Assembly (NCBI GenBank): GCA_963773045.1
Contig: CAVYZT010000013.1
Span: 207,137-271,136 of the forward strand
DNA: 64,000 bases
From: an uncultured Acidobacteriota bacterium
GTDB lineage: Bacteria > Acidobacteriota > Vicinamibacteria > Vicinamibacterales > UBA2999
Direction: 5' to 3'
Shown piece after piece: positions 6,329 to 61,932 of the stretch (positions within the stretch are counted from its first letter, which is position 1; each line of letters starts with the position of its first letter). Both the position numbers and the translations under genes were made by a program. A model generated the notes under the pieces. It had not been told where the DNA came from, did not search any database, and was given only the letters and a program-made list of their open reading frames with translations.

Positions 6329-7005
6329 GATTCGGCCGATCGGTAGCCGATCCCGTACACCGTCTCGATGTAGCGCGGTCGGCGCGGGTCGGGCTCGATC
6401 TTGCGGCGGATGTTCTTGATGTGCGTATCGATCGCGCGCTCGAACGATTCCACTTCCGTCCCGCGGACCGCGTCCAGCAGTTGCGCGCGGCTGAAGACCC
6501 GCCCGGGCTGGCGGGCCAGGGTCGCCAGCAGCTGGAATTCGGTCGCGGTGAGATCGATGGCATGTCCGTCGCGAGAGGCTTTCAGACGAGGCACGTCGAG
6601 CGTGACATCGCCGAGACGAACGACATCGCCCGAGTTGGCGGCGACACGCGCCCGCCGGAGGACGGCCTGCACGCGGGCCACGAGCTCACGCGGGCTGAAC
6701 GGCTTGGTGATGTAGTCGTCCGCGCCCAGCTCCAGGCCGCGGAGTCGATCGTCTTCGTCGACTCGTGCCGTCAGCATGATGATCGGCACGGTCGATTCCG
6801 CCCGCAGCGTCCTCGTGACCTGGATTCCGTCCAGCTTGGGAAGGCCGAGGTCGAGGACGATCAGGTCGGGACGGCGATCGCGGGTCAGCGCGATCGCGCT
6901 CTCGCCGTCGGCCGCGCTGAGCACGGCAAAGCCGGCCCGCTTCAGGTAGTCGACGGCGATTTGCGCAATCTGCAGTTCGTCTTCGACGACCAGGATGGTT
7001 TTCAC
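6325..7005 (-). CDS. OmpR-family response regulator
   Basis: REC (ILVVEDE...DLIVLDLGLP) plus winged-helix tail (ETVYGIGYR). GTG 7005 chosen because the upstream part of the ORF runs into an AT-rich repeat. Confidence 0.9.
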   Translation of the reverse strand: MKTILVVEDELQIAQIAVDYLKRAGFAVLSAADGESAIALTRDRRPDLIVLDLGLPKLDGIQVTRTLRAESTVPIIMLTARVDEDDRLRGLELGADDYITKPFSPRELVARVQAVLRRARVAANSGDVVRLGDVTLDVPRLKASRDGHAIDLTATEFQLLATLARQPGRVFSRAQLLDAVRGTEVESFERAIDTHIKNIRRKIEPDPRRPRYIETVYGIGYRSAES

Positions 7006-54439: not shown

Positions 54440-54492
54440 CAGGTTCAGCAGGTTCAGCAGGTTCAGCAGGTTCAGCAGGTTCTGCAGGTTCG
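54440..54492. repeat. Tandem nonamer array (CAGGTTCAG)n, second locus
   Basis: gaac(aggttcagc)x4 aggttctgc aggttcgg. Near-identical to 4331-4400. Confidence 0.9.
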
Positions 54493-54500
54493 GACTACTG

Positions 54501-55559
54501 ATGAATCGTCGCGCGTTCTTACAGACTGGACTGCTGGTGCCGTTGGCGATGCGGCACGCGGCTTCGGCGGCGACTGGCGTGTGGCGTTCGTTCGAGATCA
54601 CGTGCAAGCTCGAGATCAAGGATCCGGTCGGCCTCGTGCGGGCCTGGGTGCCGTTGCTGCTCGCGCGGACCGCGCCGTTTCAGCGGGATCGCGGGCACGA
54701 AGCCTCGGGCAATGCCGCTCGCACTCAAGAGATCCAGGATCCAGCGTCTGGCGCCCTGATGGTCGTGGCCGAATGGCCGCAAAGGGACGCGCCGCCGGCA
54801 CTGGCCGTGACAATGCGCGCCGAGACCACCGATCATCGAGTGGCGCTCGACGCGCCAGGCGCCGTCAGATCGAAGCCGCGCGATCTTGGCCGCTACCTGC
54901 GACCGACCAGGCTGATTCCGGTCGACGGCATCGTCCGCGAGACCGCCAGCCAGATCACCAAGGGACACGCCACCGATCTCTCTCGTGCGCGCGCGATCTA
55001 CGACTGGATTGTCGAGAACACCGTTCGCGATCCTGAGGTGAAGGGCTGCGGATTGGGTGACATTCGCGGCATGCTCGAAATGAAAAACCTGAGCGGCAAA
55101 TGCGCCGATCTCAACGCGCTCTTCGTCGGCCTGGCGCGAGCGTCGGGCCTGCCGGCGCGCGATCTCTACGGCATCCGCGTCGCGCCGTCGGCAGCCTCGC
55201 CCAGTCTCGGGCGCGGCGGCGGCAACATCACCACGGCGCAGCACTGCCGGGCCGAAATCTATCTCGATCGTTACGGCTGGGTGCCCGTCGATCCTGCCGA
55301 CGTCAGGAAGGTGATACTCGAAGAGCGGCCTCAGGCCGCGCTCAGCGATCCGTACATCGCCGGCGTTCGCGCGCGGCTGTTTGGCTCATGGGAAGGCAAC
55401 TGGATCGCCTTCAACGATGCGCACGATGTCGCCTTGCCCGGTTCAGCTGGTAAGCCTCTCCCGTTCCTGATGTACCCGCAGGCAGAGGCCGCGGGCACCC
55501 GTCGCGACAGCCTCGATCCCGATCGCTTCAAGTACGAGATCAGCGCGCGCGAACTGTAG
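54501..55559 (+). CDS. Tat-exported transglutaminase-like cysteine peptidase
   Basis: MNRRAFLQTG. Catalytic Cys in GKCADLNALFVGLARASG. His and Asp in HCRAEIY..GWVPVDPAD. Confidence 0.8.
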   Translation: MNRRAFLQTGLLVPLAMRHAASAATGVWRSFEITCKLEIKDPVGLVRAWVPLLLARTAPFQRDRGHEASGNAARTQEIQDPASGALMVVAEWPQRDAPPALAVTMRAETTDHRVALDAPGAVRSKPRDLGRYLRPTRLIPVDGIVRETASQITKGHATDLSRARAIYDWIVENTVRDPEVKGCGLGDIRGMLEMKNLSGKCADLNALFVGLARASGLPARDLYGIRVAPSAASPSLGRGGGNITTAQHCRAEIYLDRYGWVPVDPADVRKVILEERPQAALSDPYIAGVRARLFGSWEGNWIAFNDAHDVALPGSAGKPLPFLMYPQAEAAGTRRDSLDPDRFKYEISAREL

Positions 55560-56893: not shown

Positions 56894-57439
56894 ATGCGCT
56901 CATTCTTTGCGGTTCTTGCACTCGCTGTTCTGTCGTTCACCGCCGTGCCGACAGCCGATCAAGCCGGTGCACAAGCCACAGTCAAGCTCACCAAAGCGGC
57001 GGTGGCGGCCGAAGCCAAGACCGATCAACGCGACACGATGGCGCCGGAATCGGGCAAGCAGTTCCTGTGGGTGTCGGCGACCCTGTCGGGTGCCGCCCAG
57101 ACGATCGATCTGACGAAGGTGGCCCTGGCCGATGGCGCGGTCAGCTATCCACTCGTCGGCGTCGACAGCGTGTGGGATGGGGATCCGAATCAGTTTTCGA
57201 TGATCGCGCCGATCAAGTTGAAGACCGGCAAGGTGAGAGATCCGCTGGAAGAGACACGGTCGGTCGGCCCGATCGCCTTTGCCTTCACGCCGGGCAAGCT
57301 GGCGACGTTGAAGGTGATCGAGCCGCCGCAGTCGTTCTGTCTGCTCTTCCTCGTGCCGCAGGCGGTCCACGCGGGCCAGATCAAGGGGCTCACCGCGGCC
57401 GCGCTGGCGATTCCGGCGCTGCCGGCCGGCAAGCCATGA
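56894..57439 (+). CDS. Secreted hypothetical protein (DUF4352/Ig-like?)
   Basis: GGGAGG RBS. Signal peptide MRSFFAVLALAVLSFTAVP. GKQFLWVSATLSG beta-sandwich-like pattern. Confidence 0.45.
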   Translation: MRSFFAVLALAVLSFTAVPTADQAGAQATVKLTKAAVAAEAKTDQRDTMAPESGKQFLWVSATLSGAAQTIDLTKVALADGAVSYPLVGVDSVWDGDPNQFSMIAPIKLKTGKVRDPLEETRSVGPIAFAFTPGKLATLKVIEPPQSFCLLFLVPQAVHAGQIKGLTAAALAIPALPAGKP

Positions 57440-58509
57440 TCCGTTTCGCGCGTCTCGCCTCGCTCGTCGCCACGCTTGCCGTTGCTTTCGCCGGCGAAGT
57501 GTCGAGTGCAGGCGCGCAACCGGTGCGGCTGGAGTATCGCGTCGTGCAGGCAGCGCCTCGCGAGCTCCAACGCCGCATCGACGAAGCCGGACGCGAGGGC
57601 TTCGCCTGCGTCTCCGTCGCGCGGCCTGAGACGGACGTCAAACTCAACAGCGTCGTCGTCGTGCTCGCGCGGCCTTCGAGCACCACCGTAGCGCGCGCGA
57701 CGCATCGTGTCGAGCGCGCTGCCGGCAGCGGCAGCGATCTGCAGTCGCTGCTCGATCGGTCAGGCTCGGAGGGCTTCCACCTGTGCGGCGTCGCGTTGGC
57801 GGAGATTTCACCCTTCCCCGTCCTGGTCGCCGTGATGAGCCGTCCTGTCGATGGCGACACGGGCGCGTGGCACTACGCCGCCGAAGTCCTCGGCCAAAAG
57901 GATCGGCTGGCGAGGCTCGTGGCGAAGGCTCACGAGGGATTCGTGCCGGTAGCGGCATCGCCGGTCAGCGACAATCGCGTCGTCGAGATGCGCAACTGGA
58001 TCCTCGTGACCGAGCGGTCGGCGACCTCCACGGAACCGATCGATCTCGCCATCCGTTCCGGCCCAGGCCCCGACAGCGTGCAGCGCGCCATCGTCGAGCA
58101 GAGCAAGCAGGGGTACATCGCGAACCTGTTCTGGAAGGAAGGCAACACCACCATCGTCGTGGCCATGTCGCGATCGCCCGTCAATCCCACGGTGCGTCCG
58201 GAGTTTGTCGTCGAGACCATCGATCCGTCGAGGCTGGATGGGTGGCCTGGCGTCTACATCGGCGATGTGCCGTACCTCAGCGACGGCCAGCGTGTGGTGT
58301 TGACGATCAAGGACAGCTCGACCTCCACTTCCGTGGTGGAGGATCGGCTGCCGGTCATGGGCACGGTGGATTCTGCCGACATCAATGCCATGCGGCCGCT
58401 CGGTGAACATCTGTCGCGCAACCGGTATCGGTTGGCCAGGTCGAGCATTCGCCGGGGCAAGGACGGCAGTCTCGTGCTGCATACGGTGCTGACTCGACTT
58501 TCTCCGTGA
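57436..58509 (+). CDS. Secreted hypothetical protein with three internally similar modules (DUF4177-like?)
   Basis: ATGA overlap with the previous gene. Signal peptide. Recurring E[YL]..V......L....[EQ]..[KR][EQ]G[FY] modules. Confidence 0.45.
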   Translation: MIRFARLASLVATLAVAFAGEVSSAGAQPVRLEYRVVQAAPRELQRRIDEAGREGFACVSVARPETDVKLNSVVVVLARPSSTTVARATHRVERAAGSGSDLQSLLDRSGSEGFHLCGVALAEISPFPVLVAVMSRPVDGDTGAWHYAAEVLGQKDRLARLVAKAHEGFVPVAASPVSDNRVVEMRNWILVTERSATSTEPIDLAIRSGPGPDSVQRAIVEQSKQGYIANLFWKEGNTTIVVAMSRSPVNPTVRPEFVVETIDPSRLDGWPGVYIGDVPYLSDGQRVVLTIKDSSTSTSVVEDRLPVMGTVDSADINAMRPLGEHLSRNRYRLARSSIRRGKDGSLVLHTVLTRLSP

Positions 58510-60605
58510 TTGACGCGCGAGACCCACGTTCGGCCGAGCGCGGGCGCCGCCCTTCGACTTGGTGGCGTCGGATACTTCGACGCGACCAGCCAAGGGCAAG
58601 CTATCCGGGTGTCCTGCTGTGGGCCGCGTTCATCCTGACACCGCGGCCCTCGAGCGGCATCGTCGACGGCGTGCCCGTGGGCCCTATCGAAGCGGCCGCG
58701 CTTCTCGCGATCGGGTGGTTGATGCTCCAAGGCCGGCGACTGCCGGGCGCGCCCTGGGCCGCGGCCGCGCTTGCGGCGTCGATCGCGCAGGCCCTGGCGG
58801 CGCCAGAAGCTGGTGGACTCACCGCGAGGTACTACGCCACCGCCGATGCGACGGGCCCGGTCGAACGCAGCACGGAGTTTCGGGACGAGCCGTTCACCCG
58901 CGTTGACCGGACTCTCCAGTTCGAGCCGGCGCGCGCGGAGTTTCCGCTCGCATTCTTCAACGACCTTGGCCGGTTCAATTTCTATCAGCCCCACGAACCC
59001 AATCGGGAGCAGATGGCGTTCTCGGTGGTGTGGGATGGCTACTGGCGGGTCGAGACCGACGGCACGCCACGCGATCTGTATCTCGACGCACCCGGAGCGA
59101 GCGCTGAGCTGGTGCTGGATGGGATGCCGGTCGTGTCGGTCTCGCCGCTGGATGCCGCACACCTGGCGCGCGTGCAGCCAACCCGTGGGCGGCATGCGCT
59201 GCAGGTGCGATTCAGATCCCCGGCTGGGTCGCCGCGCCGGTTCTCAGCTGGCGAGCAGGTCGGCGACACACGCGAGCCGTTTGGCGCACCCACGGTGTCG
59301 ACGGCGGGCACCGAATCCTGGCGCGCGAGCGCGGCACCGATCGTCCGCATCATCGCGACCGCACTTGATGCCGGTGTACTTGGCTGGCTGTTCGCTCTCG
59401 TCGTATTTACGTTGCGCGATGACTGGCGGACGCAGGGCCGGGCTGTCATCGCGTCGCTGACGTTGATCGCCGCGATCGAAGCGCTCGTCTTCGCCACGCC
59501 CTGGTCGTGGCGGATGATGACGCTGGTCGGCGGCGACGACACCCTGACCTACGAATCCTACGCGCGCCAGATCCAGCTCGACTCGTTCCTGTTGGCGCAG
59601 GGTGGGGGAGAGCCGTTCTTCTACCAGGTGCTCTACCCCTACGTGCTGGCCGCGATGCACATGGTCTTCGGCGAGAGCATGTTCGGCCCGATGCTGGTGC
59701 AGCGGCTGCTGCTGGCGCTGCTCGTCTGGGCGATCGTCAGGATCGCCGTCCGCATCGGGGGGAACACGGTGTGGTGGTCCGCGCTCGCGTGCGGCGTCGC
59801 CTTCGCGTATTTCCTGATGGCGCCGATCTCAGGAAAGCTCCTCAACGAATCGCTCTTCGTTCCGTTCCTGACGGCATGGACGGCCGCCAATCTCAGCGTG
59901 AGCGTCTCGCCAACGCTCTGGCGCGCGATCGGCACCGGCTTGCTGGGCGGTGTGACGACGCTCACGCGGTCAACGGCGCTTCTCGCCTGGCCCGTTGCCC
60001 TGTCGATCGATTGGCTGTCGTGGAAGACGGTACCCAGGCGCGGGCGGTTCGTCGTGACGATGCTCGTCTGCTCATGCAGCGTGATGTCGGTGATTGCGCT
60101 TCGCAACTGGATTGTCTTGCACGAGTTGATCCTCATGCCGGGCGAGTTGCCGGTGACCCTCTACGGCGGCAATGAGCCGCCACCAGGCGTCACGGTCGCA
60201 GACGAGCCGCAACGCGCGATTTACGACTGGCTCGGGCTTCACCCGCTCACGAGGCGAGTCGTGGAGTACGCGCTGGTCGCGCCGCAGCCGTTCTTTCAGA
60301 ATCTCCTGAACAAGGCGCTGTTCGCGCTCGGTTATTTCGATCGGTATGCGCCGGGGTGGGGCTATTCGGTTGGCCTGCTCGTGATTGCCGTCGCGAGCAT
60401 CGCCGGTTTGCTGCTGACGATCCGCCATCCGTCTGCGCCGCTCGCAGTGGCGTTGATGCCCGCGCTCATCGCGCTGACGCAGTACGCTGCGGTGGTGATG
60501 GTCTATCCGAAGGGCATGCGGCTGATTCTCCCGTTTCACGCGCTGATGGTGCCTTACGCTGCCGTGGCGGCGAATGCGCTGTGGCGGCGTGTGCTTCGCT
60601 CCTAG
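58506..60605 (+). CDS. Polytopic membrane protein: PA14-like domain fused to a GT-C (ArnT/PMT-like) glycosyltransferase-type core
   Basis: GTGA overlap. GLTARYYATAD...FSVVWDGYWRV..G..DLYLDA..ASAELVLDG (PA14 pattern). GGDDTLTYESYA loop and more than 10 TM helices. Confidence 0.6.
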   Translation: MIDARDPRSAERGRRPSTWWRRILRRDQPRASYPGVLLWAAFILTPRPSSGIVDGVPVGPIEAAALLAIGWLMLQGRRLPGAPWAAAALAASIAQALAAPEAGGLTARYYATADATGPVERSTEFRDEPFTRVDRTLQFEPARAEFPLAFFNDLGRFNFYQPHEPNREQMAFSVVWDGYWRVETDGTPRDLYLDAPGASAELVLDGMPVVSVSPLDAAHLARVQPTRGRHALQVRFRSPAGSPRRFSAGEQVGDTREPFGAPTVSTAGTESWRASAAPIVRIIATALDAGVLGWLFALVVFTLRDDWRTQGRAVIASLTLIAAIEALVFATPWSWRMMTLVGGDDTLTYESYARQIQLDSFLLAQGGGEPFFYQVLYPYVLAAMHMVFGESMFGPMLVQRLLLALLVWAIVRIAVRIGGNTVWWSALACGVAFAYFLMAPISGKLLNESLFVPFLTAWTAANLSVSVSPTLWRAIGTGLLGGVTTLTRSTALLAWPVALSIDWLSWKTVPRRGRFVVTMLVCSCSVMSVIALRNWIVLHELILMPGELPVTLYGGNEPPPGVTVADEPQRAIYDWLGLHPLTRRVVEYALVAPQPFFQNLLNKALFALGYFDRYAPGWGYSVGLLVIAVASIAGLLLTIRHPSAPLAVALMPALIALTQYAAVVMVYPKGMRLILPFHALMVPYAAVAANALWRRVLRS

Positions 60606-60628
60606 CTCTCCCCGTATACTCTCGGCCG

Positions 60629-61069
60629 ATGCAGCTGCTCTACACGCTTCTTGGCTTCAATCGAGCGGGGAAGTTTCTCTATGGCGGGCTCATCTTGTTG
60701 GCGGGCCCGGCGCTCGCCTGGTGGTTCATCTGGCGTCCGAGCAGTCAGTTTCACGACGAGGATGAGCACTTGTTTCGCGCCGCGCGTCACGGCGACGTCG
60801 CCGGCATCGACCGGGCGCTCGATGCGGGCGCACGCGTCAACGCGGCCGCTCCCATCGATGGCAAGACGGCGATTTTTCGAGCAGCCGTGTTCGGTCACGC
60901 CGATGCCGTTCGCGATTTGCTGCAGCGCGGCGCCGATACGAATGCGCGCGGCAACGACGGCAAGACCGTGCTCGAGATCGTGACCAGTGTTCGATCGGAG
61001 GAACTGGATCCCGGTCGCGCCAATCGTCTCGCTGCGGTGGCGTCCGTGTTGGAGAGCGCGCAGCGATGA
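60629..61069 (+). CDS. Membrane-anchored ankyrin-repeat protein
   Basis: One TM helix (LYGGLILLAGPALAWWFIW), then LFRAARHGD...GKTAIFRAAVFGH...GADTNARGNDGKTVLE. Confidence 0.75.
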   Translation: MQLLYTLLGFNRAGKFLYGGLILLAGPALAWWFIWRPSSQFHDEDEHLFRAARHGDVAGIDRALDAGARVNAAAPIDGKTAIFRAAVFGHADAVRDLLQRGADTNARGNDGKTVLEIVTSVRSEELDPGRANRLAAVASVLESAQR

Positions 61070-61704
61070 CACGCCGGGCCATCATCCTCGTCTCCGTCGC
61101 GGTGGTCTCGTGCTCCCGGGTTCAGACGCCGCCATACGGAGGAGCGCCTGAAGAAGCGCTGGTGGCCGCGACGCTGGCGCACGACGCCGTGAAGGTGCAG
61201 CAGTTGCTTGCCGCCGGCGCCGATCCCAACAAGGCGATCACCTACAAGGCGCAGAGCCAATCGGCGTGGTCGTTGGCCTTGGAGCGGTTCACGCCGAAAC
61301 AGGACCGGCAGGCGCAGGTCGATATTGTCCAGGCCATGCTCGAGTCGGGTGCCGACCCGGAGGCCGCGTGGGGCACCAATGGTGGCGATTCCCCGCAAGA
61401 GCTCTCGAGCGTGGGACGACGGTCCTTCTCGTCCCGCTTGCCGTTGGAACTGGCCTTGTACAGCGGTGACCCCGCCGTCGTCGGCGCCATCCTTCGAGTC
61501 AAGCCCAACGCCGCTGGCGGCGAAACCGCATTGGTGATGGCGATTGAACGTGGGGAAACGGAAGTGGCCCACCTGCTGGTCGATGCCGGCGTGGACGTGA
61601 ATTCACACCGCGGCGCCAACACGCCGCTCGTGGCCGCGATCGAAGCGCGCGACGAGGCGATGATGACCTACCTCGAACAGCACGGCGCTCGAGAGAAGCC
61701 CTAG
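61066..61704 (+). CDS. Ankyrin-repeat lipoprotein
   Basis: ATGA overlap. Lipobox VAVVSC. ANK motifs (LLAAGADPN, GETALVMAIERGETEVAHLLVDAGVDVN). Confidence 0.75.
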   Translation: MTRRAIILVSVAVVSCSRVQTPPYGGAPEEALVAATLAHDAVKVQQLLAAGADPNKAITYKAQSQSAWSLALERFTPKQDRQAQVDIVQAMLESGADPEAAWGTNGGDSPQELSSVGRRSFSSRLPLELALYSGDPAVVGAILRVKPNAAGGETALVMAIERGETEVAHLLVDAGVDVNSHRGANTPLVAAIEARDEAMMTYLEQHGAREKP

Positions 61705-61932
61705 ACATCTTCTAAGCGACCGCAATCGTGACACTCGAAGCAAGTTTTCCGCGGCCGCAGAAGATGTCGCCCCGCGGAGCGGGGCAAAACAACACTGCCG
61801 CTAGCGAAGCGGAGCCGACGTGTTTTTCTGGGCGGTTTGAGGCGGAGCTTCGCTAGCGTGCCCCTAGCCGAATGGCTGGGGACGCTCACCCTCGTGTGCG
61901 AGTTTCATAGACAGCGCGACACTGGAGGGACC

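Follow-up and report, generated by a model that had tools for sequence, protein, structure and literature searches.

Enzymes of the GT-C type decorate bacterial envelopes, and most of their members in soil bacteria are uncharacterised. Two described groups bear most directly on the locus considered here: the PMT_2 enzymes, which include ArnT (GT83) and protein O-mannosyltransferase-like proteins (GT39), and the Emb arabinosyltransferases of mycobacteria, EmbA, EmbB and EmbC. In EmbB a jelly-roll domain, the PDN, is found between transmembrane helices TMH1 and TMH2, and a DDX motif lies in periplasmic loop PL2 (PMC7305291). GT-C enzymes also form the third component of three-component extracytoplasmic glycosylation systems, as in GtrA/GtrB/GtrC and ArnC/ArnEF/ArnT (PMC11127046). 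The N-domain of polyglycine hydrolases is a separate point of reference: it is built from five beta-alpha-beta-beta (EHEE) repeats of ~45-55 residues, adopts a barrel-like fold and occurs mostly in bacteria (PMC9912923). Here we compare with these systems five consecutive open reading frames (ORFs), g1 to g5, that lie on the + strand between positions 56894 and 61704 of a 64,000-nucleotide stretch of DNA (hereafter the window, analysed as a whole) from an uncultured Acidobacteriota bacterium (contig CAVYZT010000013.1). They encode, in order, two secreted proteins (g1 and g2), a polytopic membrane protein (g3) and two ankyrin proteins (g4 and g5).

We conclude that g1-g5 are probably a recent juxtaposition of separate modules and not a conserved glycosylation machine. 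The account that we favour, and consider fairly probable, is that the five genes are a mosaic particular to this lineage, made up of three units that were inherited separately and now form a co-directional, translationally coupled string. Unit A would be g3, a putative PMT_2 (GT39/GT83-like) GT-C glycosyltransferase; unit B would comprise g2 together with g4 and g5, all predicted to be extracytoplasmic and recurring together without a GT-C gene; and unit C would be g1, a free-standing secreted orphan.

The layout of the five genes would also suit an envelope glycosylation or glycan-sensing machine with ankyrin adaptors, which a preliminary description of this DNA had proposed as a possibility. 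On this model the genes encode one dedicated machine, with the ankyrin proteins (and g1 and g2) as adaptors or subunits of the PA14-GT-C enzyme. All five genes are on the same strand, separated by three 4-nt overlaps and one 23-nt gap; every product is predicted to be extracytoplasmic or membrane-bound; and among related loci the full set occurs in the same order in L034, and g2-g3-g4 in L030. As the genes are not co-conserved, a result that the preliminary description had itself named as refuting its proposal, and the complete set was found outside the window in a single other assembly (L034), we regard such a machine as very improbable and largely refuted.

Contigs that carry a window-type g3 share a syntenic framework (DUF1592-like / HXXSHH / ~590-aa ankyrin / transglutaminase ... 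Rieske-reductase / AI-2E / topoisomerase IB), within which the accessory genes around g3 differ from contig to contig. In L034 the five genes are followed by the window's downstream oxidoreductase. L030 has g2-g3-g4 preceded by a protein with four transmembrane (TM) helices, unrelated to g1 and found in its place; in L033 the same 4-TM protein is followed by g2-g3, where the contig ends; L035 has g2-g3 only; on the P0007 contig a g1-like gene precedes g3; and in L001, L031 and L032 g3 stands alone. Solitary g3 genes in the syntenic loci of close relatives are hard to reconcile with a single machine. The g3 genes of this clade are mutually ~65-95% identical, and half of them are without g2.

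The comparison of L035 with L031 is the most direct. Their g3 genes are 95% identical, and L031 has neither g1 nor g2. At L031:158-235, a 20-nt match to the g1 leader is followed by GTGATCCGTTCG, which resembles the first codons of g2, then by the terminal ~12 nt of g2 and the CCGTGA at which g2 and g3 join, and then by an intact g3. Judged from its sequence, this segment is probably a deletion scar, g1 and g2 having been lost. Because the intact g3 of L031 is 95% identical to a g2-linked copy, g3 persists without g2, again contrary to what a single machine would lead one to expect; and because enzymes this similar occur both with and without neighbours, gene flux around g3 is very fast. L034 and L035 are frameshifted in several genes at once (g3 and g5 in L034, the large ankyrin gene in L035), and pseudogene decay of the L034 g3 and g5 was rejected on that ground; the 'contig_NNNN' names of the records lead us to guess that these frameshifts are assembly indels. 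Several comparison loci appear to carry indel errors; L034 and L035 were used for gene content and not for reading frames.

Outside this clade the components were found independently of one another. Fourteen genus genomes contain g3 homologues (36-49% identity) with no g1, g2, g4 or g5 within 8 kb, and true orthologues of g1 and g2 were not found in the 40 relatives searched, which are samples in which a gene that is not found need not be absent. One relative genome (G003) has a true g4, and its g4 and GT-C genes are on different contigs. Nine g2 homologues in named Acidobacteriota metagenome-assembled genomes have no g3 nearby, and four of the nine are accompanied by g4-g5: in L045 the order is g2-g4-g5, with 4-nt overlaps at both junctions and no g3; L040 and L042 have g2 and g5-g4 pointing towards each other; and 5 kb separate g2 from g4-g5 in L046. 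With g4 as the seed, a scan of metagenomes yielded 17 loci, none of them with g3. The absence of partners near g3 in the genus genomes, the absence of g3 from the g4-seeded loci, and the coupling of g2-g4-g5 without g3 in L045 all argue against the single machine. The adaptor role that had been proposed for the ankyrin proteins falls with it: g3 joins g2 and g4-g5 only in one shallow clade.

The same scan shows that g4-g5 is a tight two-gene unit, as g5 follows g4 in all 13 of the 17 loci that have room for it. The gene g2 is adjacent in two of the 17 (L050 and L052) and is a frequent, not an obligatory, companion of the pair. No other recurrent neighbour of g4-g5 emerged from 22 loci, using a simple ORF picker that is confused by antisense ORFs in GC-rich DNA. 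When the five window proteins were scanned against Pfam and NCBIfam, ankyrin matches were the only ones obtained, and both proteins exceed the Pfam gathering thresholds (g4: Ank_4, E 1.2e-11, 44.9 bits; g5: Ank_2, E 1.5e-11, 45.1 bits, and Ank, 39.7 bits). Their ankyrin identity as first described is therefore secure. An N-terminal hydrophobic anchor is present in g4, and g5 has a lipoprotein-type signal, a lipobox-like VVSC whose Cys is conserved in homologues. In g4, R12 and K15 precede the TM segment and an acidic DEDE follows it, an arrangement from which the positive-inside rule predicts a periplasmic ankyrin domain. Mean column identity in the alignment of the g4 family is 76%.

The remaining member of this putative unit, g2, is a secreted protein with a signal peptide that matched nothing in the Pfam and NCBIfam scans; its family comprises 57 homologues. 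DUF4177, suggested earlier as a possible assignment, was seen weakly in two of 32 homologues (E 0.0028) and is unsupported. The AlphaFold2 (AF2) model of g2 (pLDDT 88.7, pTM 0.87), analysed with DSSP, consists of four regular beta-alpha-beta-beta repeats and a fifth with an insertion; the 'three similar modules' of the preliminary description are thus four clear modules and an interrupted fifth. Foldseek returned a single significant match, to the N-domain of the fungal polyglycine hydrolase Fvan-cmp (7tpu_A, E 3.1e-5). The two share five EHEE repeats of ~45-55 residues with little sequence similarity between repeats (PMC9912923), the repeat number that defines the fold. Unlike Fvan-cmp, the bacterial g2 protein is secreted on its own, with no beta-lactamase-like protease domain attached, and its fifth repeat contains an inserted beta-hairpin region. 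We consider that g2-g4-g5 is probably a protein-protein interaction module; as far as could be found, the combination of g2 with an ankyrin pair is undescribed. A search of the literature on Vicinamibacter, glycosyltransferase and ankyrin returned nothing relevant.

The product of g1 is a secreted orphan, with a Sec signal peptide and an AQA cleavage site in agreement with its earlier description as secreted. It has 93 homologues and no match in Pfam, NCBIfam or the PDB, even with a 31-sequence profile; neither the Pfam scan of g1 nor the profile of these 31 homologues supports the suggested DUF4352. In L036 and L037, homologues with 54-62% identity occur by themselves in unrelated surroundings, which again speaks against a single machine. 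Hence g1 is not an obligate partner of g3.

The domain assignments of g3 were upheld, with some qualification. The protein itself has no match in Pfam (none at E<=1) or NCBIfam, and phmmer found none in the PDB. It has more than 160 close homologues, however, and 16 of the 36 that were taken into an alignment match PMT_2 (PF13231, best E 6.7e-9); long forms of the family reach E 2.6e-10, and the matching segment begins at the GGDD loop. Alignment of g3 by hhalign with a neighbouring PMT_2-positive protein (95.7% probability) places the GGDD loop against the G-I-D motif of the latter. The PA14 family (PF07691) was matched neither by g3 nor by any of the 36 homologues, and the only match of the g3 profile in the PDB was a PA14 structure, 6qdi, at an insignificant E of 1.2. 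A Pfam search thus detects PMT_2 in relatives, though not in g3 itself, and does not detect PA14; the evidence for the latter is structural. The AF2 model built from the 36-sequence alignment (pLDDT 88.6, pTM 0.88) has ~15 long helices, at the upper end of the 8-15 TM helices of GT-C/PMT_2-like proteins. Foldseek matched it to the GT-C structures of EmbA/B/C, AglB and human STT3 in the PDB (probability 1.00, E 4.9e-5 to 6e-3) and, over ~aa 100-265, to more than 30 PA14 structures, including MpIBP (6x8d and 5j6y; probability 1.00, TMt 0.55-0.59) and the PA14 domains of Flo, Epa, GH31 and RsgI proteins. Taken together, the model, the structural matches, the homologue profiles and the hhalign result bear out the claim of a PA14-like region ahead of an ArnT/PMT-like GT-C core.

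In the model, three N-terminal TM helices are followed by the beta-sandwich, a TM hairpin, the G-G-D-D loop and ~10 more helices; the sandwich is flanked by a TM helix (82-98) and the hairpin (271-334). With this order of helices, the DD loop falls on the periplasmic side of the membrane, as does the PA14-like domain. The loop to which the preliminary description had drawn attention is the conserved GGDDTLTYESYA segment, in which G343, D345, T348, Y349 and E350 are invariant among the 36 homologues and D344 is present in at least 90%. The conserved module of GT-C enzymes is marked by an acidic motif of the type DxD, DDx or DEx, located in its first extracytoplasmic loop, and the GGDDTLTYESYA loop is, from its sequence and position, a candidate for the catalytic acidic motif of this GT-C module. 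A further ~70 positions are invariant across the same homologues, down to 42% identity. One strand of the PA14-like domain shows the typical ...W.G.W... pattern and another a conserved ..DG..; at the lectin-type Ca-binding D-cis-D pair the g3 family consensus reads L-D-A-P, compared with Y-D-D-G in 6qdi.

These observations bear on whether g3 is a transferase at all. A glycan-sensing, scaffolding or otherwise non-catalytic protein of GT-C fold would be in keeping with a sequence that falls below the Pfam thresholds, with the lack of donor-synthesis genes adjoining g3, and with the fact that some sensors, for instance the RsgI anti-sigma factors (6qe7 and 6qdi, among the structural matches), also have PA14 domains. 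We nevertheless think this very unlikely: invariance of the DD loop and of ~70 other positions is enzyme-like conservation, members of the sister clade sit in sugar-nucleotide clusters, and g3 has no output domain. An extracytoplasmic glycosylation role remains the best reading of g3, as judged from the modelled fold and the motif.

Set beside the described enzymes, g3 is closest to PMT_2 / GT39-GT83-like enzymes by sequence and to Emb by architecture. The Emb structures (7bvc, 7bvh, 6x0o) are its top whole-chain match (E 4.9e-5). Both are GT-C proteins of ~15 TM helices with the local order TM / periplasmic beta-sandwich / TM-TM / D-D loop, and the DD loop of g3 occupies the position of the DDX motif in PL2 of EmbB (PMC7305291). 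However, g3 and Emb have no detectable sequence similarity and TM-scores of 0.3; g3 is without the Emb C-terminal periplasmic domain and has two more helices at its N-terminus; its beta-sandwich resembles PA14 and not the PDN jelly roll; its profile groups it with PMT_2 and not with the arabinosyltransferase families; and host and glycan are entirely different. With ArnT and the PMTs it shares the acidic motif in the first extracytoplasmic loop, to which it adds an N-terminal PA14-like insertion, and no Arn-type or Dpm-type donor genes adjoin it. The fold of this insertion resembles PA14 adhesins (the MpIBP RTX adhesin, yeast Flo/Epa) and the insert of GH31 alpha-xylosidase, where it forms an adhesin tip or part of a glycosidase, whereas in g3 it lies inside a polytopic membrane protein. 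Although the third component of Gtr and Arn systems is a GT-C enzyme of the same kind as g3, the neighbours of g3 are ankyrin and repeat proteins, and the flanking genes (a hydrolase, an F420-type oxidoreductase and an HxlR-like gene) encode neither a GT2 enzyme nor a flippase. As encoded in the window, g3 is not part of a three-component system of this type.

The two-domain combination is not confined to this lineage. Hypothetical 'PMT2/PA14' proteins have already been annotated elsewhere, for example in Chloroflexi bacterium 44-23 (PMC8756737, Appendix 2); they share the combination according to domain databases and are uncharacterised. A literature search found no paper combining 'PA14 domain' with 'GT-C'. 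Searching 1.84 billion representative proteins with the g3 profile gave 284 clusters at E<=1e-30, many of them covering the full length including the PA14 part and some with C-terminal extensions of 200-600 aa. We conclude that g3 is a member of an existing, uncharacterised GT-C family with an internal periplasmic PA14-like domain. The family so defined, with at least 284 clusters at 50% identity and its PA14-like domain in an Emb-like position, offers a concrete candidate for how polymer-modifying GT-C enzymes bind their acceptors outside Actinobacteria. Its long forms (P0015-P0018, P0032 and many of the profile matches) are 900-1290 aa long, and their C-terminal 200-600 residues have no Pfam match.

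A likely pathway for g3 is suggested by its relatives. In a phylogenetic tree, the window-type g3 genes form a clade (100/100) apart from that of the other genus genomes (100/99). Enzymes of this sister clade are encoded in a cluster that recurs among genomes, in most cases immediately behind thiS-thiG, with genes for GDP-mannose 4,6-dehydratase (Gmd), DegT aminotransferase, UDP-sugar dehydrogenase, an RmlC-like isomerase, a methyltransferase, an AT3-SGNH acyltransferase and further PMT_2 proteins. The genome to which the window belongs (G000, a soil acidobacterium of Vicinamibacterales type, 7.8 Mb) carries the Gmd/DegT/UDPG-DH cluster at C13:380-423 kb, 155 kb from g3, which is its sole member of the PA14-GT-C family. 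Between the RmlC-like isomerase and thiG, where related genomes carry the PA14-GT-C gene, G000 has 140 bp (C13:421996-422136). The simplest inference from these sequences is that g3 serves the Gmd/DegT envelope-glycan pathway from a new chromosomal position.

Two further observations concern the sister-clade clusters. A conserved 327-aa neighbour of the sister-clade enzymes proved to be GDP-mannose 4,6-dehydratase and not a GT2 protein, and an Arn-like pathway was accordingly rejected. In L016, L019, L021 and L024 there are additional GT-C paralogues (650-713 aa, some of them PMT_2-positive) a few kb from the PA14-GT-C gene, and one paralogue in these genus-genome glycan clusters is a second, diverged PA14-GT-C copy (29% identity).

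On the mosaic account, then, the DD loop of g3 would act at the outer face of the inner membrane, where it would take a sugar from a polyprenyl-phosphate donor and attach it to an envelope glycan, which would most likely be that of the Gmd / DegT / UDP-sugar dehydrogenase / methyltransferase / acyltransferase cluster. By analogy with the carbohydrate-binding domains of Emb, the PA14-like domain might hold the acceptor or the growing glycan. The simplest explanation for the position of g3 between g2 and g4 in the window's clade would be its insertion into unit B; and as g3 lies between these genes, both units would be co-transcribed in this clade.

Several points weigh against parts of this account. 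Neither g1-g5 nor the immediate flanks include a GT2 polyprenyl-phosphate sugar synthase or a flippase. Without a Pfam match of its own, g3 stays below the thresholds for both PA14 and PMT_2, and its whole-chain TM-scores to GT-C structures are low (~0.3). As its PA14-like domain does not have the lectin-type Ca-binding DD, glycan binding by this domain is plausible at most. The argument from the empty slot beside thiG is based on one genome. The comparison is unrooted, and g3 may have been either inserted into g2-g4-g5 or lost from it. Finally, the 4-nt g2/g3 overlap is conserved in five loci and could reflect a real functional coupling within the clade.

This last point leads to a third alternative, that of a clade-specific capture in which g3 was recruited onto the g2-ankyrin module, for example to O-glycosylate Ser/Thr-rich loops between the repeats of g2, or with g2 presenting an acceptor to the PA14-like domain. 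In five loci of the clade the overlap is kept together with the GTG start of g3; g3 is PMT_2-like, and enzymes of PMT type add sugars to secreted proteins; the repeats of g2 in this clade are joined by short loops rich in Ser/Thr (SSTT, SATST, SSTSTS); and the signal peptide of g2 suggests export to the compartment of the DD loop. We consider this possible but unlikely, for g2 has been lost beside an intact, 95% identical g3 and is missing from half of the clade's g3 loci, the Ser/Thr loops are short and are not conserved across the g2 family, and a domain of carbohydrate-binding type makes a glycan a more fitting acceptor than a protein.

A related and somewhat more doubtful idea is that g2, g4 and g5 form a new periplasmic complex of Vicinamibacteria-type Acidobacteriota, into which the PA14-GT-C enzyme has been wired in the window's clade, either glycosylating the complex or being positioned by it. 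If true, the polyglycine-hydrolase N-domain fold and periplasmic ankyrin pairs would each have a function assigned for the first time. The recurrent module of an orphan EHEE-repeat fold and a conserved periplasmic ankyrin pair is the more original lead from this locus.

The features of the region are listed in Table 1. The overlapping start and stop codons first noted are present exactly as described: ATGA at 57436 (g1/g2), GTGA at 58506 (g2/g3) and ATGA at 61066 (g4/g5). A GGGAGG ribosome-binding site lies 8 nt upstream of the g1 ATG. The GTG at 58506 is the sole in-frame start within the first 50 codons of g3 and is conserved in five related loci (reading V-I/T-D/V-A), and the g2/g3 overlap is retained in L030, L033, L034 and L035. 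The four-base overlap is the commonest type of overlap in bacterial operons. The overlaps in g1-g5 indicate co-transcription and coupling, and nothing rarer; tight start/stop overlaps are here no sign of a conserved system, which calls for caution. Directly after g5, the structured segment at the 3' end has a predicted RNA fold of -49.9 kcal/mol (z = -2.78 relative to shuffles); its inverted repeat and hairpin may mark the end of the transcript, although this is not a canonical intrinsic terminator because there is no T-run. A search of 55.5-62.5 kb revealed no sigma-70-like promoter, and the frequency of terminator-like sites there did not exceed that in shuffled sequences.

Table 1. Positions in the window of the five genes and of the features discussed in the text.
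Feature	Position	Strand	Length	Description or basis
g1	56894-57439	+	181 aa	
g2	57436-58509	+	357 aa	
g3	58506-60605	+	699 aa	
PA14-like beta-sandwich of g3	58803-59300	+		~aa 100-265; model strand pattern, Foldseek
GGDDTLTYESYA loop of g3	59529-59564	+		aa 342-353 (G342-A353); alignment conservation, PMT_2 alignment, EmbB position
g4	60629-61069	+	146 aa	
g5	61066-61704	+	212 aa	
Structured 3' end	61704-61785	+		long inverted repeat (GACATCTTCT...AGAAGATGTC), then GC hairpin GCCCCGC-GGA-GCGGGGC, directly after g5 stop

Upstream of g1, the segment 48733-55559 of the window encodes a DUF1592-like PSD protein, an HXXSHH/DUF1552 protein, a secreted ankyrin protein (592 aa) and a transglutaminase, and is syntenic in four contigs (L001, L033, L034 and L035). 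The large ankyrin protein is 81-88% identical across these contigs, compared with 59-84% for g1-g5, and its gene is a stable anchor beside the variable g1-g5 region. Just after its stop codon lies a short tandem repeat, which reads ...NRFSRFSRFSRFSRF in the window (~54440-54520) and NRFDRFDRFDRF / GSTGSTGST in L035 (~6330-6420); with different units at the same position, this is a fast-evolving intergenic repeat. Downstream of g5, the segment 61837-63384 carries on its + strand a gene for an F420/NADP-type oxidoreductase (PF03807-like) and, divergently on its - strand, one for an HxlR-like regulator. Since the oxidoreductase gene follows g5 in L034 too, g4, g5 and the oxidoreductase gene may have arrived as one block.

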